Source: a virus (Duplodnaviria; Caudoviricetes). Taken from it: a stretch of 64,000 nucleotides of DNA. The notes below the pieces were generated by a model, which did no database searches, was not told the origin of the DNA, and worked only from the letters and a program-made list of their open reading frames with translations. Position 1 is the stretch's first letter. Every line of letters starts with the position of its first letter. Shown piece by piece: positions 6,847 to 63,957 of the stretch. The stretch spans positions 160,001 through 224,000 of the IMG/VR virus record IMGVR_UViG_3300014205_000170. One strand, given 5' to 3'. The position numbers were made by a program, and so were the translations under genes.

Positions 6847-7097
6847 TTATATTTAATTTTCATTATAAGTAATATAAGACCAAATAATAAAGAGAAAGTA
6901 TTGGTAATTAAAATAGCATTTTCTTTAATTAAAAAACCATACACAAACCAGAACAAAACACCTATTACATAGATGACATACATTGATAAAGAAATACTTT
7001 TTGTATCCTTTGTACGAATTGTTTTTATCATTTGAGGTACAAATGCACCAGTAGTTAAAAGGCCAGCTACTAAACCTATTATTGTTGGAGAAATCAT
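6843..7097 (-). CDS. SemiSWEET / PQ-loop transporter
   Basis: 84 aa with 3 TM segments; GLVAGLLTTGAFVPQMIKTIRTKDTKSIS and WFVYG are typical SemiSWEET signatures. Confidence 0.9.
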   Translation of the reverse strand: MISPTIIGLVAGLLTTGAFVPQMIKTIRTKDTKSISLSMYVIYVIGVLFWFVYGFLIKENAILITNTFSLLFGLILLIMKIKYK

Positions 7098-7318
7098 AAC
7101 TTAAATACCAAATTATTTACAAGGTCCGCAGGCCACAAATTAGGAATTTTATTTAAATGTTTTTCGCAGATAACTATTCTTTCTTGAATTGATTCACAAT
7201 CTTCACAAAATCTATTAATTATTAGTTGTTGAGAATTGTCAAGAACTTCAATTTTAAGCCTACAATGTATATAGCAAAATCTTTCATGATATTTCTCTGT
7301 ATAAGATTTTTCCGACAT
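7094..7318 (-). CDS. Hypothetical Cys-rich protein carrying the RxVhhEK motif
   Basis: 74 aa; RIVICEK. Confidence 0.6.
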   Translation of the reverse strand: MSEKSYTEKYHERFCYIHCRLKIEVLDNSQQLIINRFCEDCESIQERIVICEKHLNKIPNLWPADLVNNLVFKL

Positions 7319-7590
7319 TAATTTTTTTCAATTCTAACTACTCGTTTTAATATATCAACTTCTTTAAATCTTTCGTTAAAAGATTCAGTACCTATTTGAT
7401 TCCAACAACTATTATCATCAATAACATACCCAGAAGGTTCCCATATAGAATTATTTGCATCTCCACCATTATGTTGTTGGTGTTCTTGATAAATCTTACC
7501 TTTTTTTAAAACTTGAACTTTAAAAGTAAAAGAAGCCACTCCACCATCATCAAGTCCATATTCATCTATTAAAGCTTCAAACTTTCTCAT
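7318..7590 (-). CDS. Hypothetical protein with a C-terminal RxVhhEK-like motif
   Basis: 90 aa; RVVRIEK at the C-terminus. Confidence 0.6.
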   Translation of the reverse strand: MRKFEALIDEYGLDDGGVASFTFKVQVLKKGKIYQEHQQHNGGDANNSIWEPSGYVIDDNSCWNQIGTESFNERFKEVDILKRVVRIEKN

Positions 7591-7790
7591 AATTCTTTTA
7601 AAACAAGATGGTCAGTCCCTTCCAAACATGCAATTCCACTTTCAAATCTTGACCTCAATACTCTTTTGGATTTTTTGGAATACTTCGACTCGAATCTTAA
7701 TGTATAATGTTTCCCTTCATTTAATTCACATGTTGCTTTTACTTGTTTTCCGTCTGGAACTTGAATTAGATAAGATTTTCCTGGTATCAT
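7587..7790 (-). CDS. Hypothetical protein
   Basis: 67 aa with ATGA overlaps. Confidence 0.55.
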   Translation of the reverse strand: MIPGKSYLIQVPDGKQVKATCELNEGKHYTLRFESKYSKKSKRVLRSRFESGIACLEGTDHLVLKEL

Positions 7791-8356
7791 GGTTGTTCAA
7801 TTTTTAAAATTATTTTTAAATGATTTAAATGAGCAGCAAGTGCTGCAATACAAGCACAAACATAAATAATTATTGCGAAAACACATCTAACAGTAGAGGT
7901 TGTTTTGGAAATATCAAAACTTAATAAACAAAATGAAAAGAGCAAATAAAATACGAAAACAATAATAAAAAAAATGATATATATGGATAACAATTTTTTA
8001 AACCAATTAAAAGATAATAATTTTATTGTAATTTCTTCATCTCTACCATTAGTCAATTCAACAATGTGCGTTTTACAATAAATACCAACTGGCGCTATAC
8101 CACACAGAAAAAATATAAGAAATATTAATCTATCTGCAATATCCCAGTTAAATAAATTTAAATTTAAACTTGTCATCACTGCCATGGAATACCCTAAAAT
8201 TAAGCTAGTAAGTGTAGCAATAATATTACAAATATTCCTTTTTATTTTTGACATTTTTATATCTCGCGTTCTTTTTAAAACTATATATCGATTAATTCCA
8301 GCTTTTTCCAACATTACTTTTCGTTCTAATTTATAAGGCCAAGTTAATGTTAACAT
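7787..8356 (-). CDS. Membrane protein (4 TM) with an N-terminal RxVhhEK motif
   Basis: Hydrophobic segments; RKVMLEK. Confidence 0.65.
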   Translation of the reverse strand: MLTLTWPYKLERKVMLEKAGINRYIVLKRTRDIKMSKIKRNICNIIATLTSLILGYSMAVMTSLNLNLFNWDIADRLIFLIFFLCGIAPVGIYCKTHIVELTNGRDEEITIKLLSFNWFKKLLSIYIIFFIIVFVFYLLFSFCLLSFDISKTTSTVRCVFAIIIYVCACIAALAAHLNHLKIILKIEQP

Positions 8357-8407
8357 GCTAATTTATGAATAAAAAGGGAGATAAAAAAAGGTTTTTTAAA
8401 AAAAATA

Positions 8408-9710: not shown

Positions 9711-10430
9711 TTATAAAGTCAATAATTGTCTAAGTGGCCACTTAACATATTTTTCAAATAAATGAACATTATATAAAGTCATTTGTCCATAATTTTTAGT
9801 TGATAATGGAAACTTCACTGAAGTCACTGTGTCTTTATCATTATAACAAAAATGCATATTACCAGTATTACTTATATAACAAGGTAATTCTCCTGCTTGA
9901 TAATTAAATTTTCTACAATTTATTCCATTCCAATGCCATTGCACTGAATCCTTCGTTATTTTAGAAGGCATATCATTAAAACTATGAAGTTGTCCTTTAC
10001 TATTTAGCCACTCCAAAGTGATATTTAACTCTTCTGCTGGTTTTGGGTCTTTAAAAAATCTGGAAACGTCTTGAGTTACTGTTACTCTATTGAAAAGATT
10101 ATTTTTACGATATGGCTCACCATGTTTATGCCATTCTATTTCTAACCACTTATAACTACCATATGTTATTCTAGATGGCATTCCATTAAAGCTATGAAGA
10201 CGACCATTTGCATCACCCCACTCTATTGAAACAAAAGAATGACCTCTAAAAATCATACCACCAAAATCATACTCTAGATGTTCAGCTTCTTCTTCAAAGT
10301 CAACATTAGGCTTTACGTGTTTTTCGAATAAAACATTTCTACTTTCATCACCTACTAGTTTTAGACTTTTAATTTTGTCAAATGCTCTATCAAGTAATCT
10401 TTGAACTTTTATATGTTTTGGTTCGCTCAC
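9711..10430 (-). CDS. Protein with LHSFNxMP beta-hairpin-type repeats and the RxVhhEK motif
   Basis: [11 protein letters not shown] and [11 protein letters not shown] repeats; RNVLFEK. Confidence 0.7.
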
Positions 10431-11575
10431 GAATGCAATTCATCATATTCTCTCATTCGAGAATATATGCCTTTTAAGTGTTCAGTATTTTTTTCATCTG
10501 GGATAGATAATTTTACCTTTTTAAGTTTAGAAATAATCTTTTTATCCGCTTCGGAAATGTTTTTTGGAATGAAAATATTAATAAATATAAGTTGGTCTCC
10601 ACGTTGTGTTGGATTATCAATTACCGGAATACCCTTTCCTTTTAAACGAAGAATTTTTCCAGTTTCAGTTCCTGGCTCTATTTTTATTTTAGCATTTCCA
10701 TCTGCTGTTTCGATTTCAATGGAATCATTCCCTAAAACAGCATCTAAATAACTAACAAATACATCTAAAAAAATATTGTGACCTTCTCGTTTTAATTTTG
10801 GATGTTCAATTTCAGTAATTTCAACAATAAGTTTTCCATTTTCTCCACCACCTTTAGCTTCACAACCTAAATTGCCAAAACTCATATTTATCCCTTGCAC
10901 AGCTCCTGCTGGTATATCAATTTCAACTTGTTCGCTATGTCCAACTAAACCATTACCTGCACAAGATGTACAAACATCTTTTATTGATTGCCCTGAACCA
11001 CTACATTTATCACATGTATGTTGAGTCATAACTACGCCCAACATCGTTTGTTGATGTGTGGTTATAACACCGGAACCTTGACAGTTGACACACATTACAA
11101 AAGAATCTTTATTTTTGGCACCACTACCAGAACATGTTTTACAATTAACTTCTCTTGGAAGAATAATTTTTTTATGTACACCCGTAATAGTTTCGTGAAT
11201 AGTTAAAGGTATTTTTACTCTTAAATCTTTTCCTTTATTTACTGCTTGACGTTGACGTTGTCTTCCATTAAAACCTCCTCCAAAATGTCCGCCAAATCCT
11301 CTAAAAAATTCAGCCATAATATCATCACCAAATCCCGTGTGGTTAAATCCTCCAAAATTATCTCCGCTTACTTCGCCTCTATCAAATTTAGCTTTTTTAT
11401 CTGGGTCGCTCAGTATTTCATACGCTTCAGCGATTTCTTTAAATTTTTCTTCTGCTTCTTTATTACCTGGATTTTTATCCGGATGATTTTGAAGAGCTAA
11501 TTTACGATATGCTTTTTTTATTTCTTCAGCAGAAGCATTCTTTTCAACGCCTAATATTTTATAGTACTCTTTCAT
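10427..11575 (-). CDS. dnaJ: Chaperone DnaJ
   Basis: J-domain with HPD, G/F-rich region, four CxxCxGxG repeats and C-terminal domain. Confidence 0.97.
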
Positions 11576-12442: not shown

Positions 12443-13138
12443 TTATTTTTGTCTTTTTTCTAAAGTTTCATCTATCAACCCAAATTCTTTCGCTTCAGTA
12501 GGAGTCATCCAATAATCTAATTTACACTTTTCTTTTATGATATCATAAGATTGACCAGATTTTGCAGATAAAATTTTATATAAAGATTGCTCTTCTTTCA
12601 TCATTTCTTCAAAATTTACAGCTATATCTGAACTTTTACCTTCCATACCGGTAGAAACTTGATGTATCATAGTTTTAGCGCTTTTTAAAGCATATCTCTT
12701 GCCTTTTGTACCACAAGCTAAAATTACAGCTCCCATACTTGCACACATCCCTATATTAACAACAGAAACATCTGGAGTAATATATTCCATAACATCAATT
12801 AGACTTTTACCAGCCACTGTGCTTCCACCTGGACTATTTAAATACATGATAATGTCTTTCTTAGAGTCTGTCATTTCTAAAAACAATAATTGCGCAATAG
12901 TAATGTTTGTTACTTCATCCATAACCGGATGACCAAAGAAAATAACTCTATCTTTTAAAAGTCGTGTGTATACATCATAACTAATCAAAGAACCATTAGA
13001 AGCTTCTTCTACAACAGAAGGGCTTATATTTACAGTATCTATTAATTTATTAGTTTGTTGTGAAATGATTTTGTAGTTGTAGCCAAGTTTTCTGGCATTA
13101 AATTCAAAATTTTGAATTAGAGAGTCTATTTGTTTCAT
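12443..13138 (-). CDS. clpP: ATP-dependent Clp protease proteolytic subunit
   Basis: DVYTRLLKDRVIF, YLNSPGG, catalytic CASMG, MIHQ, DYW. Start placed at MKQIDS, downstream of TACATTTG. Confidence 0.95.
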   Translation of the reverse strand: MKQIDSLIQNFEFNARKLGYNYKIISQQTNKLIDTVNISPSVVEEASNGSLISYDVYTRLLKDRVIFFGHPVMDEVTNITIAQLLFLEMTDSKKDIIMYLNSPGGSTVAGKSLIDVMEYITPDVSVVNIGMCASMGAVILACGTKGKRYALKSAKTMIHQVSTGMEGKSSDIAVNFEEMMKEEQSLYKILSAKSGQSYDIIKEKCKLDYWMTPTEAKEFGLIDETLEKRQK

Positions 13139-13194: not shown

Positions 13195-13881
13195 TTACAG
13201 AGTTTTTTTCTGTAATTCTTCAATTTGTTTATTAACGCCTAATTTTTTTTGGTTTATTTCTACGTATACATTGTACAATCTATCCATTAACTCAGGCTGG
13301 TTAAGGGTAAGGAAGATTTTATCATTAAAAAAAGTAGGCATGTCAACTACACAGTTGTTCCTGTCTCTGTCCCAGAAATCGTTTAGACATACTGGTTTTA
13401 TAAGATGAACTCCTAGAATAAATGGTTTACCGTATTTGGTTTTAAGAAAAGTAACAAGATTCATTTCTGTAATTTTGTCAAATCTATAATATTGTCTAAC
13501 AATATCTTTAGTAGAATATTTTTCTATCATAACATCCCTTTTCCCATTCATTAGATATTCTCTGTATTTTAAAGAACATAATGGCAAATTAGATATCTCA
13601 GATAAAAAATATATAGCTACATGTGTTAGAGAACTATTGAAATCAAAATATTTAAGCTGTTTTTTCCCAAAAAATCCATATATTTTTCGAAAATCCGGAT
13701 ATACATTAGATTTAGAATCGTACTGACTTAACGTAACATAACTGAATATTTTGATAGATTTTAAAGAAGACTTAATTATAAAGCCATATAAAATTCCAGA
13801 CCATACTATACCAAATACAGTATAAACACCATTGGAAAATTTCCCTACTGAAAAACGAATTATTTTTTGCTGAAAAGACAT
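13195..13881 (-). CDS. Hypothetical protein between clpC and clpP, carrying the RxVhhEK motif
   Basis: 228 aa; RDVMIEK. Confidence 0.7.
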   Translation of the reverse strand: MSFQQKIIRFSVGKFSNGVYTVFGIVWSGILYGFIIKSSLKSIKIFSYVTLSQYDSKSNVYPDFRKIYGFFGKKQLKYFDFNSSLTHVAIYFLSEISNLPLCSLKYREYLMNGKRDVMIEKYSTKDIVRQYYRFDKITEMNLVTFLKTKYGKPFILGVHLIKPVCLNDFWDRDRNNCVVDMPTFFNDKIFLTLNQPELMDRLYNVYVEINQKKLGVNKQIEELQKKTL

Positions 13882-13916: not shown

Positions 13917-15938
13917 TTATTTTTTGGAGATTTTCACCTCTTGCTTATCATTGTCCCAATCAGCAATAATTGTGTCTCCGGCTTTAAATTTCTTCAACAA
14001 CAATTCTTTTGAAATAGGAGTTTGAATATATTTCGTTATCATACGTAGAATAGGTCTCGCACCAAATTCATCACTATAACCATCTTTTGCAATAATATCT
14101 TTTAAAGCATCACTAACTTCAAGTTTAAAATCTTGTTTTTCGATAAGTTTCGCGAAATTATTTAAATGAATATTTGTAATCTCTGCAACGTTTTCTTTTG
14201 TTAAACGATTAAAGAATACTTGTTCATCAAATCTGTTTAAAAGTTCAGGTTTAAAATATTTCTTCAACGCTTTCTTTACGATTGATTCAATATCAGGACC
14301 AGTGCCTTTTCCTAAGCCAAATCCAACTGAAGTCGTTTCAGACAATTCTTTAGTACCAACATTTGAAGTCATAATGATGATGGTGTTTTTAAAGTTTACA
14401 GTTAAACCTTTACCATCAGTCAATTTACCTTCATCCAAAATTTGTAAAAAGATGTTGTGTACAAGAGGATGTGCTTTTTCAATTTCATCAAATAAAACTA
14501 CACAATATGGTTTGTTTCTTACTTTCTCAGTAAGTTGTCCGCCTTCTTCATAACCAACATAACCCGGAGGTGAGCCTTTTAGTTGAGCAATAGTATGAGG
14601 CTCTGTAAACTCGCTCATATCAAATTTAATCATTGCATCTTCATCATTGAAAAGATATTCTGCTATTGCTTTTGCAAGCTCAGTTTTACCAATACCGGTA
14701 GAACCTAAGAACATCAAAGATGCTATTGGTTTTTTAGGACTATTAAGACCTGCGCGATTTCTTTGGATTGCTTCTGCAACTTTTAATACTGCTTCATTTT
14801 GTCCAACAACACGCTTCTGAAGTACTGATGGCATGTTAATCAATTTAACACCTTCATCTTCCGTGATTTTTGTTACAGGAACTCCTATCATTTTTGAAAC
14901 AACTTTTGCTACATCAGATTCTGTTACTGGGAAACGGTTGCTTTTCTCAGATTCTTCCCATTCTTTCTTTTTTAATTCAAGGTCTCTCTCACATTGTTTT
15001 TCTTTATCACGAATTTTTGCAGCCTTTTCGTATTGTTGAGCTTTGACAGCTTGGTCTTTTTCTTTCTTAATATTTTCAATTTCAGTTTCAAGCTCAAGAA
15101 TTTCAGGTGGAGTATTTAAGTTATCAATATGAATTCTCGAACCTACCTCATCAATAATATCAAAAGCTTTATCTGGAAAATATCTTCCGGTGATATATCT
15201 ATCAGCCAATTCAACAGCAGCATTAATTGCTTCTGGTAAAAACGTAACACCATGATGGTCTTCATACATACCTTTGGATTGTGTCACAATTTCTTTAGTT
15301 TCCTCCACTGTAGTTTCTTCAACCATTACTTTTTGGAAACGACGCTCCATAGCACCATCTTTTTCAATTGATGTTTTATACTCATCAAGTGTAGTGGCAC
15401 CAATTACTTGCATCATTCCTCTCGCAAGTGCCGGTTTAATCATATTAGAAGCATCTAAGCTTCCGGCAGCGTTACCAGCACCAATTAAAGTATGTAATTC
15501 ATCAATAAGAGCAATGATGTCAGGATTTTGTTCTAATTCATCTACAATAGCTTTCATTCTTTCCTCAAATTGACCACGGTACTTGGTACCAGCTACAATT
15601 AAAGAAAGGTCAATAGTATAAATCTTTTTGCCATGTAAAATCCTGCAAACATTTTTCTGAACAATTTTCATTGCAAGCCCCTCTGCGATAGCAGTTTTAC
15701 CAACTCCAGGATGACCGATTAATACTGGATTGTTTTTCTTTTTACGGCTTAAAATTTGAATAACGCGGTCAATTTCTTTTTCTCTACCAATTACAGCTTC
15801 TAATTTACCATCAGAAGCCATTTTTGTTAAATCTTTACCAAAATTATCCAACATAGGAGTTCTGGATTTTTCTTTTTTTCTTGTTGTATTTTGTTCTCCA
15901 CCAATATTTTGGTTTTCGTCTTCGATTTGTCCTGCCAT
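13917..15938 (-). CDS. clpC: ClpC-type AAA+ unfoldase lacking the N-terminal Clp-repeat domain
   Basis: Two Walker A motifs (GHPGVGKT, GSTGIGKT), pore loops KYRG and GYVG, UVR-like middle domain (YEKAAKIRD), VGF ClpP-docking loop. The protein starts just before AAA1. Confidence 0.92.
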   Translation of the reverse strand: MAGQIEDENQNIGGEQNTTRKKEKSRTPMLDNFGKDLTKMASDGKLEAVIGREKEIDRVIQILSRKKKNNPVLIGHPGVGKTAIAEGLAMKIVQKNVCRILHGKKIYTIDLSLIVAGTKYRGQFEERMKAIVDELEQNPDIIALIDELHTLIGAGNAAGSLDASNMIKPALARGMMQVIGATTLDEYKTSIEKDGAMERRFQKVMVEETTVEETKEIVTQSKGMYEDHHGVTFLPEAINAAVELADRYITGRYFPDKAFDIIDEVGSRIHIDNLNTPPEILELETEIENIKKEKDQAVKAQQYEKAAKIRDKEKQCERDLELKKKEWEESEKSNRFPVTESDVAKVVSKMIGVPVTKITEDEGVKLINMPSVLQKRVVGQNEAVLKVAEAIQRNRAGLNSPKKPIASLMFLGSTGIGKTELAKAIAEYLFNDEDAMIKFDMSEFTEPHTIAQLKGSPPGYVGYEEGGQLTEKVRNKPYCVVLFDEIEKAHPLVHNIFLQILDEGKLTDGKGLTVNFKNTIIIMTSNVGTKELSETTSVGFGLGKGTGPDIESIVKKALKKYFKPELLNRFDEQVFFNRLTKENVAEITNIHLNNFAKLIEKQDFKLEVSDALKDIIAKDGYSDEFGARPILRMITKYIQTPISKELLLKKFKAGDTIIADWDNDKQEVKISKK

Positions 15939-24319: not shown

Positions 24320-24769
24320 TTATGTTGTGTGAATACTTTCTAAAATAAATTGCAATTCAAATCCTGCTTTACACGCAGTTGCTTTAAATCCACCCGTTGA
24401 AACATAACTAGGTTCTTCTTCGTATCTATATTTTCTTACTTCTTCTAATAAATATATAGCAGTAGCTTTCAAATCTTCTATGGATGGGAGTTGTTGATTT
24501 ATTCCCCAAGTCCAATTAATGGCCTTCATAACAAAATGTGTTTTTTCAAAATCAAAATTTCTAAGTATATATTCAATTTGAACATCATCTTCTTCGGTAT
24601 TTATTTTTTTGATAAATTTCCCATTTCTATACCATACTAATTGCCCTGTATCATAAATAACAGCTGGACCATTATTTCTATGAAATTTACCTTCACTATT
24701 CTTCCAATAAGACATTCCTTTTTGTTGGTGATACCCAATTGGAAATTTTTCAAAAATTACAAATCTCAT
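24320..24769 (-). CDS. Hypothetical protein with an HRxxGPA repeat and an N-terminal RxVhhEK motif
   Basis: MRFVIFEK; FHRNNGPAVI. Confidence 0.7.
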   Translation of the reverse strand: MRFVIFEKFPIGYHQQKGMSYWKNSEGKFHRNNGPAVIYDTGQLVWYRNGKFIKKINTEEDDVQIEYILRNFDFEKTHFVMKAINWTWGINQQLPSIEDLKATAIYLLEEVRKYRYEEEPSYVSTGGFKATACKAGFELQFILESIHTT

Positions 24770-32286: not shown

Positions 32287-33388
32287 TTATTTTTATTTGC
32301 GCCCAAGATTCGTTAGATTTATCTTTCATTTCGTAATAGCCATGAAGAATGTTTTTTCCAATCAAATATTTATTACAAACACCAATAATGTCGGCCTCAT
32401 TTAATTTTTCTCCAATTCTATTGTTTCTATCATCTAAATAAACACGTACTCCCCTTTGTTTTTGTTCTAAATACAAATTCAATGCAAAATTTAACTGCAC
32501 TTCACTTTTAATATCTGCAACAATAATAACAGAATCATATGGTGTAATATCTGGACTCCAATTTAAACAATTTTCAATTCGACCGGCATCAGCCAAAACT
32601 TGGGCCAATCGCGATATACCTATACCATAACAACCCATTACAATATCTTGTTTTTGATTATTAGTATCAACATATTTAGCTTTAAGTTGAGAAGAATATT
32701 TGGTATCCAATTGAAATATATGTCCAATCTCAATTTCTCCATCACTTGTTTCAACAACAAATTCTTCAGATAATGAACCTCCAATCTCACCAGAATCAGC
32801 AGATACTATTTTGTATTTCAATTGAAGTGTGTCAAAAATTGCAATATAGCAATTACGTACTTCATTATATCTTGCTTGTAAATCTTCTTTTGTAGTATGA
32901 AAAGAATAAGCATCCATCATTGAAAACTCTTTACATCTGATTAAACCGGTATTACAACGAATTTCATCTCTGAATTTATTATTGATTTGATAAAATGTGA
33001 AAGGTAAATCTTTATGAGATTCTACATATGTTTTTGCAATAGTAGTTACCAACTCTTCATTGGTTCCGGTAAAAACCATTTCTTTATCAGAGCGGTCCTG
33101 TAATTTGAACATTTCAGCTCCATACGTCTCATATCTTCCTGTTTCTTTCCAAATATCGGCGCTTTGCAATTGATTCAAGCCTATTTCCATGCAATCTATT
33201 GCATTCAAATGTTGTTTCACTACTTGTTCAACATTATTTAATACCAAACGCATTAAATGCATTTGTACAAACAACCCTGATTGAACTTGTTTGATATAAC
33301 CAGACTTTTCTAAAAGTTCTGTGGTTGTTAATTTGATATTTTTATCAAATTTTTGTAAATTATACAATTTTGTTTTTGAGAGTTTCAT
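32267..33388 (-). CDS. proS: Prolyl-tRNA synthetase, short form without the INS editing domain
   Basis: WKETGRY, TNEE, motif 2 KFRDEIR...R.KEF.M.DAYSF, EIGHIFQL, motif 3 MGCYGIGISR, anticodon domain LDDR. Confidence 0.9.
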   Translation of the reverse strand: MKLSKTKLYNLQKFDKNIKLTTTELLEKSGYIKQVQSGLFVQMHLMRLVLNNVEQVVKQHLNAIDCMEIGLNQLQSADIWKETGRYETYGAEMFKLQDRSDKEMVFTGTNEELVTTIAKTYVESHKDLPFTFYQINNKFRDEIRCNTGLIRCKEFSMMDAYSFHTTKEDLQARYNEVRNCYIAIFDTLQLKYKIVSADSGEIGGSLSEEFVVETSDGEIEIGHIFQLDTKYSSQLKAKYVDTNNQKQDIVMGCYGIGISRLAQVLADAGRIENCLNWSPDITPYDSVIIVADIKSEVQLNFALNLYLEQKQRGVRVYLDDRNNRIGEKLNEADIIGVCNKYLIGKNILHGYYEMKDKSNESWAQIKINESIVS

Positions 33389-39593: not shown

Positions 39594-39597
39594 TTAA

Positions 39598-40506: not shown

Positions 40507-40546
40507 TTTGAGAATTTTTACAAATATAATACAATTATTTGACTTT

Positions 40547-40900
40547 TTAATTATTTTTATGTCTTTTTGAGCGTTCCCGCAAATCTTCTATGGTCCAAAA
40601 TCTTTCTGTATCATAATCAGCATTGTTTTTGTTGCATTTTTGACACAAAATAATTATTCTAATTTCATTATTGAAACATGGGGTTTTTCTTAAAGGATTC
40701 ATTTTACTATATTTATGTTCTAATGTACATAAATTATCTGGGTTGTATTTTAAAGTTTTTTTACCATTATTAGGGTGTACGTTGAATCCAATTTCTTCCG
40801 GCAATATCATTTTCGTTTTACATTTGGGACAAAATGGATTTTGATTATAAAGCCTTGTGCGTTTCTCTTTTAATCTTTGTTGTTTAGATTTTTTAGACAT
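40547..40900 (-). CDS. HNH endonuclease-like protein
   Basis: CPKC...TLEH...LCQKCN. Confidence 0.75.
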   Translation of the reverse strand: MSKKSKQQRLKEKRTRLYNQNPFCPKCKTKMILPEEIGFNVHPNNGKKTLKYNPDNLCTLEHKYSKMNPLRKTPCFNNEIRIIILCQKCNKNNADYDTERFWTIEDLRERSKRHKNN

Positions 40901-41115
40901 TTCTCTATTAATATTTTTTTTGTATAAATTTTATGTTTCCAATTATATAAAACCTTTTTACCATCTACTAGCCGCCATTTTCCGGCCTCCTCATCATATT
41001 TATTCCACACAACAAAAAATTCTCCATTATACAAATTAAACACAACCTCTCTTACAATTTGTAATTCTTCAAGGTGATTGTGAAAAAAAATTATTTCTCT
41101 TGGAGTAGGGTTCAA
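40870..41115 (-). CDS. Hypothetical protein, paralog of 41112..41390
   Basis: YDE...KW.L...W; KKILIEK. Confidence 0.6.
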   Translation of the reverse strand: MNPTPREIIFFHNHLEELQIVREVVFNLYNGEFFVVWNKYDEEAGKWRLVDGKKVLYNWKHKIYTKKILIEKCLKNLNNKD

Positions 41116-41390
41116 AATTTATATTTTATTGTTTTTTCTAAAATTACACTTTTTACATACACAAACACATCTGCCCACTCCTTCATAAACCGGTCACGAT
41201 TTATCAAATTCCATTTAGAATAAGTTTCATCATATAAATACCACAACTCTTTTTTTTCATTCAAATGATTAACAATAATTGTTCTTCTTATGTTTAAAAC
41301 AGTATAGTCAACATTTGTAATTAAAAAAAACTTATCCTCGTTTAATCTAGGAGCTCTTTTTGGATTTCTTCCCATAATTCTACTGTCCAC
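41112..41390 (-). CDS. Hypothetical protein, paralog of 40870..41115
   Basis: YDE...KW.L...W; KSVILEK. Confidence 0.6.
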   Translation of the reverse strand: MDSRIMGRNPKRAPRLNEDKFFLITNVDYTVLNIRRTIIVNHLNEKKELWYLYDETYSKWNLINRDRFMKEWADVFVYVKSVILEKTIKYKF

Positions 41391-42813: not shown

Positions 42814-43120
42814 CTACTTTTAATTCCCATTTTTCATTTTTTCTCGCAATGGCTTTAAGTACATCCTCTGCTGTAAAACCAAAACCATCCAAAATACAAA
42901 TAACATTTTGAATGGAGTCAGCTCCCTCATCTAAAATTTCTTGATTAATACTTTCTGGAGTATCTTCAGGCTTCAAAACTTTCCTTCCATTTGTTTTATT
43001 AATAGCTTTAGCTAACTCTCCGCCCTCTTCAAAAAATTTCCCCAATCTCTCCGCAGCAGTTGCTTGGTCTTTTTGATTTATACGACTAATGTCGTTATAT
43101 ATTATTTCGAAATTTTTCAT
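42800..43120 (-). CDS. MazG-like NTP pyrophosphohydrolase
   Basis: FEEGGELAKA...DEGADSI...KNEKW. Confidence 0.8.
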   Translation of the reverse strand: MKNFEIIYNDISRINQKDQATAAERLGKFFEEGGELAKAINKTNGRKVLKPEDTPESINQEILDEGADSIQNVICILDGFGFTAEDVLKAIARKNEKWELKVDGKL

Positions 43121-43554
43121 TGTATATAAATTAATTTTGTATGTATATAATTCTGATTATTAAATAAAATGCAATATTTTGGAGGTAATAGTATATCAGA
43201 GTATACAGTAATTCCTTCTATATATCCCTCTTTTCTAGCTCCATTATGATGTTCAAAATCCTTATCAAATGAAAAAATTTTATGTGTGTAAAATTGTCTT
43301 AACAAAACCTCAACTTCCATAGAAATATATAAAGAATTAAATAAAAATTCTTTTTCCAGCAAAACATTACGGGTATTTAAATGATATTCAAAACAATCAT
43401 CATATTTTAAATTTGATAAATTTTTCAATATTCTTATTAGTAAAGTTTTATCATGTTCTGTTTGAGAAGAAGAACTTTTCCATTCCCAAATTCCCTGTGG
43501 GGTGAATTCGGTATATTTAATTTTATCTTGAATATATTTTAATGTGTGTAACAT
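43117..43554 (-). CDS. Hypothetical protein with the RxVhhEK motif
   Basis: RNVLLEK. Confidence 0.6.
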   Translation of the reverse strand: MLHTLKYIQDKIKYTEFTPQGIWEWKSSSSQTEHDKTLLIRILKNLSNLKYDDCFEYHLNTRNVLLEKEFLFNSLYISMEVEVLLRQFYTHKIFSFDKDFEHHNGARKEGYIEGITVYSDILLPPKYCILFNNQNYIHTKLIYIQ

Positions 43555-44291: not shown

Positions 44292-45042
44292 AATATTTCT
44301 TTATTAGTTTATAAAATTGTTCTTCAAAAACAACATTCAAAGGTATTCTAAATGCAGCAAAAAACAAAGCCAATTCCTCACTAGAATAATAATTTAAATT
44401 ATTATCGTGACAATTATAAGGACACAGCAATTCTAAATGTTTATTATTATCAGCGAATTCATATGCGCTTTTAATTTCTTCTTTAATTTGTTCTGGAGTT
44501 CTACTAGGATGGGTATCTTTGGTTAAATCTTTAGTGACAATACCAAAACATTGACCATTTAAACCTCTAGGTTTTCCATTTTTCGCTCCAAACTTCTCTT
44601 TACACAGCAACGCAAATCCTTTACCATATCTTCCTTGTGTATTGGTTCCAACTATCGCTATTTGATTTTCTTTTAAAGATAATATTTTACCTTTGTATGT
44701 TCGGTGAATATCCAATTTAGATTCAATGATTTTTTTAATGATAGTGCCATGGCAAGGCTGTGGCATACAATAACACACTAAATTCATATTTGTCCCGGAA
44801 CGAACTTTTTTCCAAATTGAATTTAATTCTTTGCAAACAATAGTATCTTTATTTTTAATTTTTTCATTAAGATACTCGCTAAACATTTTTAAAGACTGTT
44901 CTCTTGAATCACAATGATATTCTGCTTTGGTTTGAACTGTTGCCGGAATACTAGTATAAGGATTTCCTAAAGGAGAGCCTCTACCAATAAACACATCATT
45001 TTCAGTAGGAGTATGTGTTTTTTTATTTACTACGGTTATCAT
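44281..45042 (-). CDS. DUF4326-like domain fused to a macro-domain-like C-terminal module
   Basis: VFIGRGSPLGNPY...LVCYCMPQPCHG, followed by NQIAIVGTNTQGRYGKGFA. Confidence 0.7.
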   Translation of the reverse strand: MITVVNKKTHTPTENDVFIGRGSPLGNPYTSIPATVQTKAEYHCDSREQSLKMFSEYLNEKIKNKDTIVCKELNSIWKKVRSGTNMNLVCYCMPQPCHGTIIKKIIESKLDIHRTYKGKILSLKENQIAIVGTNTQGRYGKGFALLCKEKFGAKNGKPRGLNGQCFGIVTKDLTKDTHPSRTPEQIKEEIKSAYEFADNNKHLELLCPYNCHDNNLNYYSSEELALFFAAFRIPLNVVFEEQFYKLIKKYYEF

Positions 45043-45430
45043 TGAATTGTTTTAAAGATTGCAATAATAATTCTTGTGTAATCATTTCTACAAAATAAGA
45101 ATAACATTCTGTTGAATTTCTGCGACCATTATAAAAATGGTAATAACCAGTACAATATAAAAAAGTATGTTGATATAATTCATCCAGTTCAGTTACATTG
45201 CATTCATCAAACATAGCCTTTTGATTAAATTGTTTTAAGAGTTTCATCATTATAAATTTGACCATCTCTGAAAGACAACTAATTGCATCTTGGTTAATTT
45301 TTTTTTCTTGTATAGACTGCATAATTGAAATATAAAGAAGTTCTTTAAAATGAACATGAAAAACAGAACGAGAAGTTATTTTTTCAAGCAGAACACTTTT
45401 GTGGTGTAAATATTTTCCTTTCTCTTCCAA
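45023..45430 (-). CDS. Hypothetical protein with a KxVhhEK motif
   Basis: KSVLLEK. Confidence 0.55.
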   Translation of the reverse strand: MEEKGKYLHHKSVLLEKITSRSVFHVHFKELLYISIMQSIQEKKINQDAISCLSEMVKFIMMKLLKQFNQKAMFDECNVTELDELYQHTFLYCTGYYHFYNGRRNSTECYSYFVEMITQELLLQSLKQFNDNRSK

Positions 45431-45438
45431 AATTCTTT

Positions 45439-45816
45439 TTAAACAAATTCATGGTAATTTTTATATCGGGTTTGTGCATGATACACAACAACACTTTTTA
45501 TTTCGTTTATTCTTCTATTTATTCCAGTTTTATGAATATCACTTTCAAATGCAATTTTTGTTAGCTCAGAAATAGTTTTAAATTCAGTATAACCATAATG
45601 AACTTGAGTGCAATTATATAAAATACAATCTTTATAAGGAGAATTATGTCTATATTTAATTTCTACAACAAATCCAAACACACCATCATCAACAAAATTT
45701 TGTTCCTTCGATATGTTTATCCTTTTGTTTAAAACAATAAGTTTCATCCAATTAAAAAGATAACCTTTTTTTTCTATAATAACATCTCTTTCTTGTATTT
45801 TTGAAGGGGAAAACAC
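45439..45816 (-). CDS. Hypothetical protein with the RxVhhEK motif
   Basis: RDVIIEK; downstream of an ECF-type promoter. Confidence 0.6.
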   Translation of the reverse strand: MFSPSKIQERDVIIEKKGYLFNWMKLIVLNKRINISKEQNFVDDGVFGFVVEIKYRHNSPYKDCILYNCTQVHYGYTEFKTISELTKIAFESDIHKTGINRRINEIKSVVVYHAQTRYKNYHEFV

Positions 45817-46137: not shown

Positions 46138-48272
<2,135 letters not shown>

Positions 48273-48283
<11 letters not shown>

Positions 48284-49406: not shown

Positions 49407-49736
49407 TTAAATCTCTATTAAATCTACCTCTCTAAATTCCATATTATGAATTACAGCACCTATAATCACATGATTTCCATCACCTGTCTCAAATTTAAAT
49501 TCATCCCTTTCGCTTGTAAATCTATAAACATATTTATATTTTTCAAACAAAACCATTCTACTGGTTTGAATACCTTTATAATGCAAAGAGGTAATAGCTC
49601 TGCCATTAGAATTAAATAAAACCAATCGTTTAAATTGTAAACTAGCAAAGTTTAATTTGACCAAAAAAGCATATCCTTTAATGAATGGTGACCTTTTTAA
49701 ACTTATTGTATCACCAAGTTGAAACGTATTTTTCAC
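49407..49736 (-). CDS. Hypothetical protein with the RxVhhEK motif
   Basis: RMVLFEK. Confidence 0.6.
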   Translation of the reverse strand: MKNTFQLGDTISLKRSPFIKGYAFLVKLNFASLQFKRLVLFNSNGRAITSLHYKGIQTSRMVLFEKYKYVYRFTSERDEFKFETGDGNHVIIGAVIHNMEFREVDLIEI

Positions 49737-50006: not shown

Positions 50007-50225
50007 ATGGAACCAGACATAGGAGATACATTACTTAATACAGAAAACAATATAAAAGGCTTTATTTCAAAACCTATTGGATATAATATGGTAATTGACA
50101 ATACTATAGTAATTAGACTAATGGAACCCAACAACAAAAACAATCATAGAATTGAAATTAATAAAGATTTTTTATTACTTAACACCCGTATTGTTTTGTT
50201 AGAAAAACAGTTTTCCAATGAATAA
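50007..50225 (+). CDS. Hypothetical protein with a C-terminal RxVhhEK motif
   Basis: RIVLLEK; ATATTTAT box upstream. Confidence 0.6.
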   Translation: MEPDIGDTLLNTENNIKGFISKPIGYNMVIDNTIVIRLMEPNNKNNHRIEINKDFLLLNTRIVLLEKQFSNE

Positions 50226-52134: not shown

Positions 52135-52416
52135 TTATTTTATTAATTGTAATAAATCATTAGAATAGTGAATGCCAATAACAGTTCCAACAACACTTCC
52201 TAGTGAATAACCCAACCATTGATGTATTGTATCGTCAGATGTAGCAATCTTTTTAATTAACACAAAGTTCGCTGATGCAAATATAAAATCGCTACTCGCA
52301 GCTAATAAAATATTTCCATGAGCCACTGCTCTTAAGTTAATACAAATTATTCCATAAGAAAATATTTGTACTACAAACATGATTAAAAATTCCTTTATTT
52401 TTTTGTGTTTTATCAT
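52135..52416 (-). CDS. Small membrane protein (DUF5698-like)
   Basis: 3 TM segments; GYSLGSVVGTVIG; similar to 29402..29677. Confidence 0.6.
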   Translation of the reverse strand: MIKHKKIKEFLIMFVVQIFSYGIICINLRAVAHGNILLAASSDFIFASANFVLIKKIATSDDTIHQWLGYSLGSVVGTVIGIHYSNDLLQLIK

Positions 52417-52910
52417 GTTGTTTTTTCAAAATGACGACAGTATTTAATGTCTGTCCATTTAGCGACAAAGTGTCTTTCTTCTTCTTTTATATAATTTTCT
52501 TTTTCAACCAAAGTAGTCCTAGTTGGAGTATCATATACGATTCTTTCTAAATAAATCCTCGGATAATACCCACTTTGAAAAGTTGCTTTCCAAATTTTGC
52601 CATTATGAAAGATAGCAGCAACTCTTGCCTGTACTGCATGTTCGGTATTAAACCAATCAATTTGTTTATCAGTAGTTGTGTATTTAGCTCCATTATATTC
52701 CCATTGAAAATGTCTTGAAATAAAAAACGAATTTTCCATTCGTTTCCAAACATTCAATCTAATAGATTTTAAATTAATTATTTTGGAAATATTAGTTTTA
52801 TAATCCAAATAACTAACTTCGTTTTTCTCAATTTTAGTAATACGTTTTAGCTTGTGATTTATTTTAAAATAACAATCATCATTCTTTCTATATACTACAT
52901 TTGATTTCAA
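52413..52910 (-). CDS. Hypothetical protein
   Basis: 165 aa ORF; start uncertain. Confidence 0.55.
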   Translation of the reverse strand: MKSNVVYRKNDDCYFKINHKLKRITKIEKNEVSYLDYKTNISKIINLKSIRLNVWKRMENSFFISRHFQWEYNGAKYTTTDKQIDWFNTEHAVQARVAAIFHNGKIWKATFQSGYYPRIYLERIVYDTPTRTTLVEKENYIKEEERHFVAKWTDIKYCRHFEKTT

Positions 52911-55000: not shown

Positions 55001-55805
55001 TTTTTATTATGGAAGAAACAGGGTTTGTATTAACATTAGATACAAAAACATTAACGTTAGAGTGACAACATTTTTTTAAATTATCAGAAATTACCTGTCC
55101 AGCATGTTTCTCTGATTCGTAGTGTCCTATATCAACTAATATAATATCCTTTTCATCAAAAAAAGTATGATACGTAATGTCAGCAGTAATTAACATATGG
55201 GCATGCATCTTTTTAGCTTGTGATGCCATAAAAGAAGCTGTACCAGTACAAATAGCAATAGTGTCTATCAGAGAAGAATTAAATCCCTTTGAAAAATTAA
55301 TTGGTCCTGATATTTCTAATTTTTTTTGTATAGAATAAATAAAATCAATAACATATTCTTTTTTAGGAAGAACTCCAACAGCTCCAGCTCCTAAAGAATA
55401 AGTTGTATCATTATCTACCATTTTTAATGGTGTAAGATTTTGTAAGCCAAGTTTATCAGCTATTGATTTATTAAGACCCGTTAAAAATACATTATCCAAA
55501 GAAGTATGAGCAGCATAAATAGAAATATTATTTTGTATGGCAAACATAATGATTTTTTCATTATTATTGGTTGAAAGTAAAGTCTTTAAGCCTCTAAAAA
55601 TAATTGGATGATGCGCAACAATAACATTACATTGTTTTTCAATAGCCTCTTCAACTACTTTTAAATTAATATCTAAAGTAGTTAAAATATTTGTAATATC
55701 ATTTTCTGGATTACCAACAATAAGACCACAATTATCATAACTTTCTTGAATTCTTTTTGGTGCCACAGCATGTTCAATAGCTGTAACTAATTCTTTAATT
55801 TTCAT
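54993..55805 (-). CDS. Nif3/YbgI dinuclear metal protein
   Basis: YDNCGL, AHHPIIF, AAHTSLD, ITADITYH, DIGHYESE. Confidence 0.92.
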   Translation of the reverse strand: MKIKELVTAIEHAVAPKRIQESYDNCGLIVGNPENDITNILTTLDINLKVVEEAIEKQCNVIVAHHPIIFRGLKTLLSTNNNEKIIMFAIQNNISIYAAHTSLDNVFLTGLNKSIADKLGLQNLTPLKMVDNDTTYSLGAGAVGVLPKKEYVIDFIYSIQKKLEISGPINFSKGFNSSLIDTIAICTGTASFMASQAKKMHAHMLITADITYHTFFDEKDIILVDIGHYESEKHAGQVISDNLKKCCHSNVNVFVSNVNTNPVSSIIKND

Positions 55806-56169
55806 ATTTTTTTTTCTTTAATTTAATTTTCTCTATAAATACTTTTTTCTTAAACGCATAACTGGTATCAAGTTCAAAATATGGCTTTTCTATAAACCTT
55901 TCTAAGTATGCTAGTGGGTTACTATACATAGCCATTTCTCCAAGATATGAAATAATTTCTGACTTTTTCTTACAATCAAAAAACTGCTTTACAAATTCTT
56001 TTGATAAAATAACATTTCTAATTCTCAAAGTATTGATTCCCCAAGAAATAGATTGTATTTTATTAATTTCAGATTGTAAAGAATCATTTAATTTCTCAAT
56101 GACTTTTTCCAACAAAGCTTCTTCTTTCCATTGTCTTTTACCAGTCAATCTATTTACTTGTCTACTCAC
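55795..56169 (-). CDS. Hypothetical protein with a KxVhhEK motif
   Basis: KKVFIEK. Confidence 0.55.
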   Translation of the reverse strand: MSRQVNRLTGKRQWKEEALLEKVIEKLNDSLQSEINKIQSISWGINTLRIRNVILSKEFVKQFFDCKKKSEIISYLGEMAMYSNPLAYLERFIEKPYFELDTSYAFKKKVFIEKIKLKKKKYEN

Positions 56170-56173
56170 TGAA

Positions 56174-56614
56174 TTATTTTTGTCTTATCTGCGAAAAATC
56201 CCTAAGAAATCTTGGTGTTAAAAACGTTTTTTCTATTAAAATATTTCGAGTTTCATCCTCTGCTTTTTTTACTAAAACCTTATGTAACAAAGCTTTATCT
56301 CTTTCAAGTTTTTCTTTTTTTAATTGATTGGTTTTCTCTCTTAAATGTTTTAAAAATAATTTATGCAAAGAATGATATTCTTTTGAATTTACACTCACTT
56401 CAATTGAATTGAAGGTTAAAAAAAAATCTCCATCACAATTACATAAAAGCATTTCACAATCATTGCCACGAAATTTAATTGTATTCATTCGGTCATCAAC
56501 ATCAAATTGAATTCGAGGACAATCTAATCCTTTATTAAAATGATAATCAAGAGTCAAACTTGTAATATCCTTTAGTTTTGTTTCAAATAAATCTATAAGT
56601 GCTCTTTTATTCAT
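56174..56614 (-). CDS. Hypothetical protein, paralog family A
   Basis: LIDLFE...FFLTFNS...EY; RNILIEK. Confidence 0.65.
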   Translation of the reverse strand: MNKRALIDLFETKLKDITSLTLDYHFNKGLDCPRIQFDVDDRMNTIKFRGNDCEMLLCNCDGDFFLTFNSIEVSVNSKEYHSLHKLFLKHLREKTNQLKKEKLERDKALLHKVLVKKAEDETRNILIEKTFLTPRFLRDFSQIRQK

Positions 56615-57056
56615 CTGCTTGTTTTTCTAATAAAATACCTCTTTTCTCTTTATTAACCTTTTGAGAAAAAATTAGGTTTAATAGTTTTTCATCATTTGTA
56701 ACAAGGTCTTTTTTTTCTTCTTCTGAAACGATATTTTGTTTGTTACAATACTTTTGCATCAAAGACCAATATTCTTCTGATGTGAGTTTATAACGAAAAG
56801 AATTGAAACCGATAAAAAAAGAATCTAAAACACCAACAACATACAAAGAAGCTCTTTCATAATTATCATACTCTTCTTGTACTCCATCCTCATTTATTTC
56901 CGGCACTTTAATTGTAATTTCAATTTCAAATCCAGGCAAATCACCAGAATAATTTTCAATTGAATGTTTTAAATAACAACTAGTAGGCGTGCCAACTTCA
57001 CATTGTTCTTCAAATAAATTTATTAAAAAGTCTTTTCTATCCATTTGATTTTTCAA
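56607..57056 (-). CDS. Hypothetical protein, paralog family A
   Basis: LINLFE...FFIGFNS...EEY; RGILLEK. Confidence 0.65.
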   Translation of the reverse strand: MKNQMDRKDFLINLFEEQCEVGTPTSCYLKHSIENYSGDLPGFEIEITIKVPEINEDGVQEEYDNYERASLYVVGVLDSFFIGFNSFRYKLTSEEYWSLMQKYCNKQNIVSEEEKKDLVTNDEKLLNLIFSQKVNKEKRGILLEKQADE

Positions 57057-57408
57057 TTAAAGGTTTTCTAATCTCTCTTTTATTTTTTTCAGCAATATAA
57101 AATGCTAAATCTTCACAATCGTTATTGTGCTCTCTAATACGTTTTTCTTTTAAAATAGTCTCTACTTTAGGTTTTATCATTTCATATATAACTTGATATT
57201 CTTCTTGTAAAATAGGTATTTGAATAGTATTAAACTTAACGAAAGAGTTATATTGATAACCAGAAATGGTTATGATATGTTTATGCTCAGTACCTAAGTA
57301 AACAGAAAAAAATTTATCAGAAATATGCAAACGAGCTTCTTCTGCTATAAGAAATTCACTTTGAAACAATTCCATTAAAACTTTTTTATCTACTTTTTCT
57401 AGTTCCAT
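57037..57408 (-). CDS. Hypothetical protein, paralog family A
   Basis: LMELFQ...FVKFNT...EEY; RKPLIEK. Confidence 0.65.
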   Translation of the reverse strand: MELEKVDKKVLMELFQSEFLIAEEARLHISDKFFSVYLGTEHKHIITISGYQYNSFVKFNTIQIPILQEEYQVIYEMIKPKVETILKEKRIREHNNDCEDLAFYIAEKNKREIRKPLIEKSNG

Positions 57409-62177: not shown

Positions 62178-62248
62178 GTTTGCTCCTTTAAAAAGATAGA
62201 ACAAATTTAGCAATTTTAACCTGAAAAAATGACTTCTTTATAAAAAGT

Positions 62249-62578
62249 TTATAAATTAGTTTTTCTTCTATATTTTTCTATTACTCGAAGCATCTGTTGT
62301 AAGATAGTGCTATCAGTTAAAATGCGTTGATGAGGGAAACCAACCACTAGGGCCGTTATGCCTAGATGATTTGTTAAAGCTAAAATATGCTCATCAAACT
62401 CTGATTTCATAAAAACAGGAACACCATTTAGTTCACATAATCTTATAAGGCTCGTTTTTACTGGAACACTAATTATAAATTTTTTTTCAAACAAAACATT
62501 CCGATAATAAAAATCATTAATATTATCAATTTGAGGTATAAAAATTTGTTTCAAGGTTGATAATATAAGTTTGAACAA
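62249..62578 (-). CDS. Hypothetical protein with the RxVhhEK motif
   Basis: RNVLFEK. Confidence 0.6.
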   Translation of the reverse strand: MFKLILSTLKQIFIPQIDNINDFYYRNVLFEKKFIISVPVKTSLIRLCELNGVPVFMKSEFDEHILALTNHLGITALVVGFPHQRILTDSTILQQMLRVIEKYRRKTNL

Positions 62579-62952
62579 GTTAAAACATAAGAGTAATCTG
62601 AAGGTTCATAAATTTCCAAAACAGTATCTGAGAACATTCTTATTTCTTGTTTGTTACAACATTTACACACATTACTTGTTAAGAACAATGCATTCTCATC
62701 AGTATATTCCAGATGTAAATATTTGAAGGATTCTTTTGAAATTAAACAATTACGTAAATCCTTATTAGTAGTAAAAGACATTTCAAATAACACAACTTTA
62801 TCTTTAACATAAAAAAACACATGTGAATTTTCTTTATATTGATATACATCACATGAATTTATTAATTGCTCAAGATTAAACAAAATATTCTTTTGTGCAG
62901 ATACTCGTTTTTCTAAAAAAACTTTTCTTTGTATTGGAATTCGCAATATCAT
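62551..62952 (-). CDS. Hypothetical protein, paralog family B
   Basis: IPIQRKVFLEK; FFYVKDKVVLFE. Confidence 0.65.
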   Translation of the reverse strand: MILRIPIQRKVFLEKRVSAQKNILFNLEQLINSCDVYQYKENSHVFFYVKDKVVLFEMSFTTNKDLRNCLISKESFKYLHLEYTDENALFLTSNVCKCCNKQEIRMFSDTVLEIYEPSDYSYVLTCSNLYYQP

Positions 62953-63365
62953 TAATTTGGTGTCATTTTTACCGTATCTGATAAATTTCTAAAAACAATA
63001 CGATATTTATCATCATCTGATAACGAAAATAAATCGGCAATTTTCTGCCGAATCTTAACCTTATTAGAATAGGGTGCAGAATCTAAATGAAACTGCAATA
63101 CAGAGGAATTAAATATTAATTTTTCATCTAAATCACTATATATTTTAAAAATAGTAATTCCATCTTTTTTATAAACAACAGTATGTACTCTTTTATATAC
63201 AAACACCTTAGAATCTTCAAATAATAAATCTACCATAAATTCAACATTTTTCATTGGATGTTTTAATTTCTCAATTAAAATTCTACGCTTTGTATATTTG
63301 AACCTTTTAGGATTTTCAAGAAATTCTTCTATGTTCATTATATGACTTGTATTTTTGTTGCACAC
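62952..63365 (-). CDS. Hypothetical protein, probable paralog family B
   Basis: RRILIEK; VVYKKDGITIFK. Confidence 0.6.
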   Translation of the reverse strand: MCNKNTSHIMNIEEFLENPKRFKYTKRRILIEKLKHPMKNVEFMVDLLFEDSKVFVYKRVHTVVYKKDGITIFKIYSDLDEKLIFNSSVLQFHLDSAPYSNKVKIRQKIADLFSLSDDDKYRIVFRNLSDTVKMTPN

Positions 63366-63739
63366 TTCTTAACATGAGGAAACGTTGAAATGGAATTAAA
63401 AGAACACCCAAAATCACATTCTTGAATATTAGGAGAAATATATTTAGTAAACATTCTCATAATGTGTTGATGAATTACCGCATTTTGTTTTGCAAAAAAA
63501 CACCTATCTGCTTTAATTGGATTACATAAAAAATTCAAACTATTTTTATGAAATTGAATTTCAAAAATAACTTCTAAATTTTGTACATAAAAATAAGTGT
63601 TATTAAATTGATTTGAATGAAAAATGTTACATCCAGACAATTCTTCTTCAAAAAAAAGCTCTACATTATTATAGGTAATTGTAGTTTTTTCTGTTAACAC
63701 TCTTCTTTGTATAGGGATTTTAATATCATTATTCATCAA
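63338..63739 (-). CDS. Hypothetical protein, paralog family B
   Basis: IPIQRRVLTEK; YFYVQNLEVIFE. Confidence 0.65.
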   Translation of the reverse strand: MMNNDIKIPIQRRVLTEKTTITYNNVELFFEEELSGCNIFHSNQFNNTYFYVQNLEVIFEIQFHKNSLNFLCNPIKADRCFFAKQNAVIHQHIMRMFTKYISPNIQECDFGCSFNSISTFPHVKKCATKIQVI

Positions 63740-63957
63740 TACTTTTCAGTTATGACATTTCTTTTGCTTACTAATCTGTTTTTTTCAACTTCGCTTATGA
63801 AACGATTATAAACTTTATCAAACTCTTTTTTTGTAATTTCTACAAAGTCTGTTTGTAAATTCAAAAAATGATGCGCACTTTCATTCTCATAAGTAAGAAT
63901 GTGAGAAAAATCTGATTCTGATTTTATTGTTACACCTTTAATTTTTCCAGTTTGCAT
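63736..63957 (-). CDS. Hypothetical protein (start uncertain) with a C-terminal RxVhhEK motif
   Basis: RNVITEKY followed by a stop. Confidence 0.55.
   Translation of the reverse strand: MQTGKIKGVTIKSESDFSHILTYENESAHHFLNLQTDFVEITKKEFDKVYNRFISEVEKNRLVSKRNVITEKY

Follow-up and report, generated by a model that had tools for sequence, protein, structure and literature searches.

A portable seven-residue peptide tag on about 180 mostly unrelated small proteins of a 519-kb T4-like phage: a candidate docking site with a possible role in counter-defense

F-box, BC-box and PRANC adaptors, which occur in eukaryotic viruses and intracellular bacteria, join a constant short handle to a variable target-binding body and have undergone large lineage-specific expansions. 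In T4-like phages, a short common peptide containing L/I-x-E is carried by the T-even internal proteins Ip1, Ip2 and Ip3, which are small, unrelated, non-essential inhibitors of host defense that act by direct binding (PMC12373910). Phages can also redirect Clp proteolysis, as SPO1 does with Gp53, an adaptor-like protein of the host ClpCP (PMC6873191), and among the jumbo phages in which ClpS, ClpP and DnaJ genes have been described, T4-like members carry ClpP and DnaJ (PMC7824862). Here, we analyze a 64,000-nucleotide stretch (the window) that spans bases 160001-224000 of the 518,809-bp virus record IMGVR_UViG_3300014205_000170, in which an earlier note, made from the sequence alone, had noticed a seven-residue tag on small, mostly unrelated proteins and read it as a short linear docking motif. 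Coordinates marked "genome" refer to the whole record and all others to the window. We find that the tag is real, selected as a peptide, portable and abundant in a single phage clade.

The T4 capsid targeting sequence is N-terminal and spans about ten families, whereas the tag lies at either end or in loops and each genome has 170-200 carriers, among which are membrane proteins and virion-protein fragments; packaging here is conjectural. Unlike in the F-box, BC-box and PRANC systems, the host has no ubiquitin system, the handle is only 7 residues long and free in position, and many of the bodies are pieces of the phage's own proteins. Gp53 and ClpS, for their part, are single adaptors without a motif common to many proteins, and the ClpC encoded here lacks the N-domain. 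In its mode of action the tag system would resemble the F-box adaptors of viruses or the capsid targeting sequence of T4, without belonging to either group.

All 23 heptamers reported at the outset were recovered in frame in the open reading frames (ORFs) to which they had been assigned. The numbers given there as ORF starts are real starts only for the gene at 50007; for the 22 minus-strand genes they are the low coordinates, that is, the stop ends. Occurrence on both strands likewise holds through that one plus-strand carrier, the other 22 listed being minus, and the ORF at 63736 extends beyond the window end into a full protein of 149 aa. The estimate of about 23 carriers was sound for those listed and missed two one-position variants (35870-36145 and 52413-52910), whereas a heptamer match in the 1042-aa gene at 57408 is at chance level and is not found in its homologs. 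Counted against composition-preserving shuffles, as the earlier note had proposed, its own pattern occurs in 21 of 93 window genes versus 0.25 (maximum 3 in 1000), and genome-wide in 167 of 820 genes versus about 2 in shuffles. A strict form of the motif gave 169 genome-wide versus 1.9 expected on a composition-matched background, and a relaxed form 184 genes versus 5.3 +/- 2.3. Over composition-preserving shuffles the enrichment is about 90-fold.

The tag is almost confined to proteins shorter than 300 aa. It was found in none of 72 proteins of 300-500 aa and in 4 of 55 above 500 aa, which is chance level, in keeping with the earlier remark that the recognizable enzymes lacked it. The accompanying statement that recognizable enzymes make up most of the coding sequence was too strong, since genes of at least 300 aa account for about half of the window's coding residues. 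The motif profile is (T)-R-x-V-L-h-E-K: Glu and Lys are invariant, even where Lys is the last residue, positions one and three are mostly Arg and Val, and Thr is favored immediately upstream. Thr at the fifth position, initially taken for a deviation, is a regular variant with 29-32 copies genome-wide.

Codon use at the tag positions tracks genome-wide use, and 188 copies lie in frame versus 10 in other frames or antisense; the absence of an off-frame excess together with ordinary codons supports the proposal that selection acts on the peptide and not on the DNA, and rules out a DNA-level repeat as the source. Placement proved as free as first described, with 63 tags near the N-terminus, 95 near the C-terminus and 26 internal among 180 carriers; 158 of the 180 lie no more than 30 residues from an end (the N- and C-terminal counts overlap slightly), in polar flanks, and some C-terminal tags are the very last seven residues. 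When the tag was masked, BLAST resolved the 180 carriers into 151 components, 127 of them singletons, which rules out one common fold and agrees with the view that the carriers are unrelated families. Of 205 carriers, 6 have predicted membrane segments, a lower share than the 44 among 503 other small proteins.

The phyletic distribution of the tag is narrow: it is abundant only in one clade, defined by capsid proteins 88-90% identical, where two contigs of relatives from one sample match its density here, with 62 of 388 and 33 of 164 genes tagged. Relatives with capsids no more than 82% identical, including three near-complete genomes, show background levels or one to three variant copies. The system may be old, with an expansion in this clade, since two of these rare copies sit in orthologs of tagged genes. 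A de novo word search in the tag-negative relatives recovered no alternative tag. The tag was retained in 32 of 35 ortholog pairs (43% mean identity), in 30 of them at the same relative position, and its Arg was 91% identical compared with 12-44% in the flanks; the three exceptions comprise one start-codon miscall, one paralog and one chance match. The earlier note had named three outcomes that would count against the tag, namely a frequency at shuffle level or equal in enzymes, no conservation above the flanks, and a single fold with the motif buried, and none of these was observed. About 25 consecutive tagged genes form an array at 28-38 kb of the relative G046, including a paralog family with the tag at residue 9. 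Separately, a late 519-aa protein (genome 446864-448423) contains a conserved block with [RK]-Y-[LI]-[IV]-T-E-K in tag-positive and tag-negative relatives alike, which is possibly an ancestor of the tag or a chance resemblance.

Two carriers that belong to known families show how the tag may have been acquired. The product of genome 341232-342056 is a member of the Acb3 (anti-CBASS) family, matching PF25187 at 6e-37, above cut-off, with model positions 82-244 aligned in two pieces that flank the tag; the latter lies in a 25-residue insertion between two conserved blocks. Among Acb3 homologs, insertion and tag occur together in 21 and neither in 98, with one further fragment. In an AlphaFold2 model of this carrier (mean pLDDT 91; one model only) the tag falls in a lower-confidence coil loop, and a fold search of the model against the PDB returned no match. 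The product of genome 268856-269506 is a homolog of Tad3 (anti-Thoeris), with a Pfam match at 2.4e-27 and an alignment along its entire length to residues 2-188 of the solved Tad3 9B7D at E 1.7e-25. It adds a 13-residue tail ending in the tag, as do 26 of 120 Tad3 homologs, the others stopping earlier or ending differently; another carrier has a weaker Tad3-like match. The extra tagged loop or tail of the clade members is absent from all other homologs, and by family membership they are putative inhibitors. The presumed binding targets of Acb3 are CD-NTases, whereas Tad3 acts by direct contact with ThsB (10.1101/2025.07.23.666291; PMC13728456). By sequence comparison, the tag is a portable module, apparently gained by loop insertion or tail extension, and it is predicted from modeling to be exposed in loops or tails. 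The reading as a short linear docking motif on unrelated proteins holds in that the tag is peptide-level, position-independent and portable; the docking itself is putative.

Other identifiable carriers are pieces of the phage's own proteins. Tagged degenerate copies of the capsid protein cover residues 18-107, 274-346 and 439-506, and in two of them the tag interrupts the copied stretch. There are also two tagged tail-tube copies, one tagged at each end, a tagged copy of the terminase ATPase domain in which Walker B is altered, a tagged tail-fiber piece and a tagged part of the prohead protease, which is a CBASS trigger, together with a tagged helicase ATPase copy, a sheath N-terminal peptide and portal peptides. 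Relatives retain the self-derived fragments and add others: Pfam and PHROGs matched their tagged proteins to Gp23, DnaB, terminase and tube, and in two relatives the tag of the gene syntenic with 7094-7318 is immediately followed by portal residues 322-350. At a threshold of E<1e-3, no match to capsid, portal, tube, sheath, terminase or protease was obtained with any of the 680 untagged non-core small proteins, and shuffling the carriers abolished all matches. The capsid fragments are 49-57% identical to the phage's own and to relatives' capsids alike. Among the proteins copied in this way, tube, capsid, terminase and portal are recognized as triggers of the DSR, Thoeris and Avs systems (PMC13276650). 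The earlier note had overlooked the Acb3 and Tad3 families, the self-derived fragments and the capsid-targeting alternative discussed below. A tube-like fold suspected for the product at genome 398783 was not supported by BLAST. A DUF6642 gene (genome 471940-472509), 72% identical in a relative, converges on the tagged terminase-ATPase copy in both genomes.

We propose that (T)-R-x-V-L-h-E-K serves as a short linear docking site on tails and loops, read by one common partner, and the existence of such a partner is very probable. The variable bodies would mostly be target-binding baits, comprising Acb3- and Tad3-type inhibitors as well as degenerate pieces of the phage's own proteins, the latter possibly acting as decoys for the host sensors of those proteins; that the baits are directed mainly against host immunity is reasonably likely. 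The handle would then bring bait and bound host protein to a protein-remodeling machine, where a sensor captured by a fragment would be unfolded or destroyed instead of triggered. This recruitment of a chaperone or protease we put forward tentatively, the leading, if faint, candidate being the phage DnaJ acting with host DnaK, the adjoining ClpC without its N-domain, and ClpP. As a whole, counter-defense by tagged baits is a possibility that we favor without regarding it as established. Its most ambitious form, a ubiquitin-free platform for targeted degradation in which about 200 interchangeable baits, including decoys of the phage's own triggers, share one handle read by a phage-tuned DnaJ-ClpCP that destroys captured sensors, is doubtful.

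Several observations weigh against this proposal. About 90% of carriers have no recognizable family, so that the bait interpretation rests on some 12-15 identified proteins per genome. Matches to sheath, helicase and, in this genome, portal are short or of low significance (E 0.03 to 3e-5). Because the fragments resemble the proteins of relatives as closely as those of the phage itself, they could be aimed at competing phages. In other phages, Acb3 and Tad3 function untagged. The gain of DnaJ is indistinguishable from that of any other clade-specific gene, and the sister genome G007 has DnaJ but only 1-3 tags.

The candidates for reader differ in their distribution. As the earlier note had recognized, the phage ClpC lacks the adaptor-binding N-domain on which Clp adaptors dock, and the tagged gene that it had pointed to between clpC and clpP is present, with the tag at the same position in two relatives; a third relative lacks that gene. 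ClpC, equally without the N-domain, also occurs in tag-negative complete relatives, and ClpP in all four complete genomes compared, so neither can serve as a marker of the system, and the synteny argument is weak. DnaJ is present in the tag-rich genomes and in G007 and absent from three complete tag-negative relatives, and dnaJ loci carry tags in every case checked. Of 31 clade-invariant changes in DnaJ, 12 fall within 70 residues of C-terminal domain I (p=0.006, with boundaries set post hoc), which we take to be the client-binding domain within the limits assumed here, and they add four acidic and three basic residues. DnaJ therefore fits the role weakly better than ClpC or ClpP, a link kept weak by its being a single gain on one branch, and it is unlikely to be the direct reader. 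A complex prediction of DnaJ 108-352 with a 32-residue tag alignment scored 0.00 and, having been run without controls, is evidence neither way. Two other proteins, a 673-aa product (genome 484139-486160) that matches AAA, ClpB D2-small and peptidase M41 and lacks an evident membrane anchor, and a SET-domain protein, are unlikely readers because the relatives' contigs examined, including the one that covers 484 kb, contain no homolog of either.

Tagged genes are unevenly distributed among three promoter classes, named here by inference from the genes downstream: a host-type box, a late box preceding structural genes and, in the 516-46 kb region, a strong early-type box. Tags occur in 3 of 60 small genes of the early-type class and 7 of 37 of the late class, which include the capsid and sheath fragment cluster, and are commonest behind host-type or unassigned units. 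A promoter-like box, TGTAAC-N17-CGTATAGTAC, occurs about 55 times (genome 516449-518487 and 535-46113), in each case before a small gene, and these genes are almost never tagged; in about half, the ATG lies three bases past the box, which suggests leaderless messages. A late-type box, CTATTTAT (window 6372 and 22308, and genome-wide), precedes structural genes and large L-x-E-rich proteins that start with a helical I-R-K-x-I-R-K-x-L-x-E motif. Two adjoining RpoD-like sigma factor genes (genome 305507-307328) may read the phage promoter classes.

The strongest rival, although itself unlikely, is a capsid-packaging signal resembling the T4 capsid targeting sequence, by which a cocktail of anti-defense proteins would enter the prohead and be injected with the DNA, possibly after cleavage behind Glu by a gp21-type protease. 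This T4-like phage encodes such a protease (genome 358997-359665), the tag contains L/I-x-E, which is the gp21 consensus, and the presumed head proteins of the group start with a helical motif ending in R-K-I-L-F-E, that is, the tag minus Lys. That helical signal, however, already marks presumed head proteins in tag-negative relatives as a separate element. The scarcity of membrane segments among carriers (6/205 versus 44/503) fits packaging, and yet a three-helix membrane protein keeps its tag in the ortholog. The T4 internal proteins are likewise small and unrelated, share a common signal and inhibit defenses (PMC12373910), but their signal is N-terminal, whereas 95 of 180 tags here lie near the C-terminus and 26 are internal. 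Carriers make up only 7 of the 37 small genes that follow the late promoter, but the internal proteins of T4 are not late genes either. The tag-like stretch in a conserved late protein of all relatives, which might favor packaging, is a single match of the kind expected by chance in a long conserved protein.

A second rival, improbable in our assessment, holds that the tagged capsid, tube, sheath, portal and terminase fragments mark for removal what they bind, either the assembly intermediates of related phages in the same cell or misassembled proteins of the phage itself. The copied stretches correspond to conserved regions, the N- and C-terminal parts of the capsid protein and the N-terminal arm of the sheath, that presumably make subunit contacts, and the capsid fragments resemble own and relatives' capsids to the same degree (49-57%). 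Fragments that are equally own-like should nevertheless poison the phage's own assembly, the tags on the Acb3 and Tad3 homologs would be left without explanation, and most carriers would fall outside its scope. On a par with it, and comparably hard to credit, is a degron or timer, in which the tag would send toxic accessory carriers to a phage or host protease after they have acted. Terminal placement within 30 residues of an end (158/180) in polar flanks, a ClpC without its adaptor-binding N-domain, and the need to clear decoys of virion proteins would all suit a degron. Yet a timer would be needed most by the 60 or so small genes downstream of the strongest early promoter class, and of these almost none is tagged (3/60); known degrons are mostly end-specific, unlike a tag found at either end or in a loop.

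A modification site, at which an enzyme would recognize R-x-V-L-h-E and modify or conjugate the invariant Lys (or Glu), is very unlikely: strict invariance of Glu and Lys, even with Lys as the last residue, speaks for it, but Pfam scans of the top 25 families of clade-specific genes, covering part of the genes, revealed no ubiquitin-like, transglutaminase or similar family, and the SET-domain protein of this genome is missing from the relatives' contigs examined. Less probable still is mimicry of host GroEL residues 36-42, an inter-subunit strand, with docking on GroEL or on a recognizer of that strand. Bacteroidota GroEL reads R-N-V-[VI]-[IL]-[ED]-K in 31 of 34 sequences and the motif is otherwise rare in host genomes; in GroEL, however, the fourth residue is usually Val and the sixth frequently Asp, both of which the tag avoids, matching the Ile and Glu forms, and the strand site is occupied in assembled rings. 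No GroEL or GroES gene was found in the phage genome, and the resemblance was noticed post hoc among many possible hubs. An artifact of compositional bias, DNA repeat or one common fold, as might be feared where Lys, Glu, Ile and Leu are frequent in a genome of 30% G+C, is negligible in view of the 90-fold excess, genome-like codons, lack of an off-frame excess, 151 families and absence of the tag in equally AT-rich relatives.

If the tag marks counter-defense adaptors, the approximately 170-200 orphan proteins per genome become candidate binders of immune proteins and a ready-made screening library that singles out the hypothetical genes worth testing. The self-derived fragments would then show which parts of capsid, portal, tube, sheath, terminase and protease sensors see, and the growth of the clade's genomes to about 500 kb, versus 250-390 kb in tag-poor relatives, would have a possible reason. 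Under packaging, the tag would instead amount to a capsid signal that is free in position and found on more proteins than any precedent. In line with the statement that no description of the motif was known, none was found in the non-subscription literature that we searched, nor were phage-made decoys of the phage's own triggers or F-box-like logic in bacteria. The present analysis adds the portability of the tag, its clade limits and the identity of its cargo.

The genome is complete at 519 kb, has direct terminal repeats and a G+C content of 30%, and contains a T4-type head and tail module, with a major capsid protein whose top match among cultured phages is only 35% identical. The host is probably a member of the Bacteroidota, since the closest bacterial counterparts of the phage ClpC and DnaJ belong to that phylum, one gene encodes a type IX secretion sorting domain, and many units have a TAnnTTTG promoter box. 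The carriers and candidate partners of the window are collected in Table 1; Pfam gave no significant match for six window carriers, and a search against the atlas with the protein at 13195-13881 gave no usable match.

Table 1. Tag carriers and candidate partner genes in the window
Position	Strand	Feature	Tag position
7094..7318	-	74-aa protein; Cys/His-rich N-terminal part, variable tail	7160-7180
7318..7590	-	90-aa protein; C-terminal variant tag	7324-7344
7787..8356	-	189-aa protein; three predicted membrane segments, N-terminal tag, retained in ortholog	8303-8323
9711..10430	-	239-aa repeat protein directly downstream of dnaJ; tag retained in four relatives	10320-10340
10427..11575	-	Phage DnaJ, putative reader	
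12443..13138	-	Phage ClpP, catalytic Ser/His/Asp positions retained; candidate downstream protease	
13195..13881	-	228-aa protein between clpC and clpP; internal tag	13519-13539
13917..15938	-	Phage ClpC without N-terminal domain	
24320..24769	-	149-aa repeat protein; tag at residues 2-8	24746-24766
33385..33657	-	90-aa tagged protein	33421-33441
35870..36145	-	91-aa protein; variant tag, absent from the earlier list	36041-36061
40870..41390	-	Two adjoining tagged proteins, 81 and 92 aa	40900-40920, 41133-41153
43117..43554	-	145-aa protein; internal tag	43351-43371
45023..45430	-	135-aa ORF; N-terminal tag, start codon uncertain	45380-45400
45439..45816	-	125-aa protein; N-terminal tag, retained in ortholog	45769-45789
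49407..49736	-	109-aa ORF	49539-49559
50007..50225	+	72-aa protein; C-terminal tag, sole plus-strand carrier of the window	50187-50207
52413..52910	-	165-aa protein; variant tag, absent from the earlier list	52500-52520
55795..57408	-	Four 123-149-aa proteins in a run; C-terminal tags	55828-55848, 56228-56248, 56622-56642, 57049-57069
62249..63739	-	Four 109-137-aa proteins in a run; N-terminal tags	62483-62503, 62908-62928, 63267-63287, 63686-63706
63736..64000	-	3' part of a 149-aa protein starting past the window; C-terminal tag	63742-63762

Among the remaining genes, a NAD synthetase-like gene (26714-28558) and a nicotinate/nicotinamide phosphoribosyltransferase-like gene (50913-52130) were recognized by eye, and an NMN transporter is encoded elsewhere; together these likely form a NAD-rebuilding counter-defense set. 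Several aminoacyl-tRNA synthetase-like genes lie at 32267-37683 and 47543-48283, with others elsewhere in the genome. In the relative G025, the prohead protease gene (39478-41277) is split by an insertion of about 380 residues at an intein-like position.

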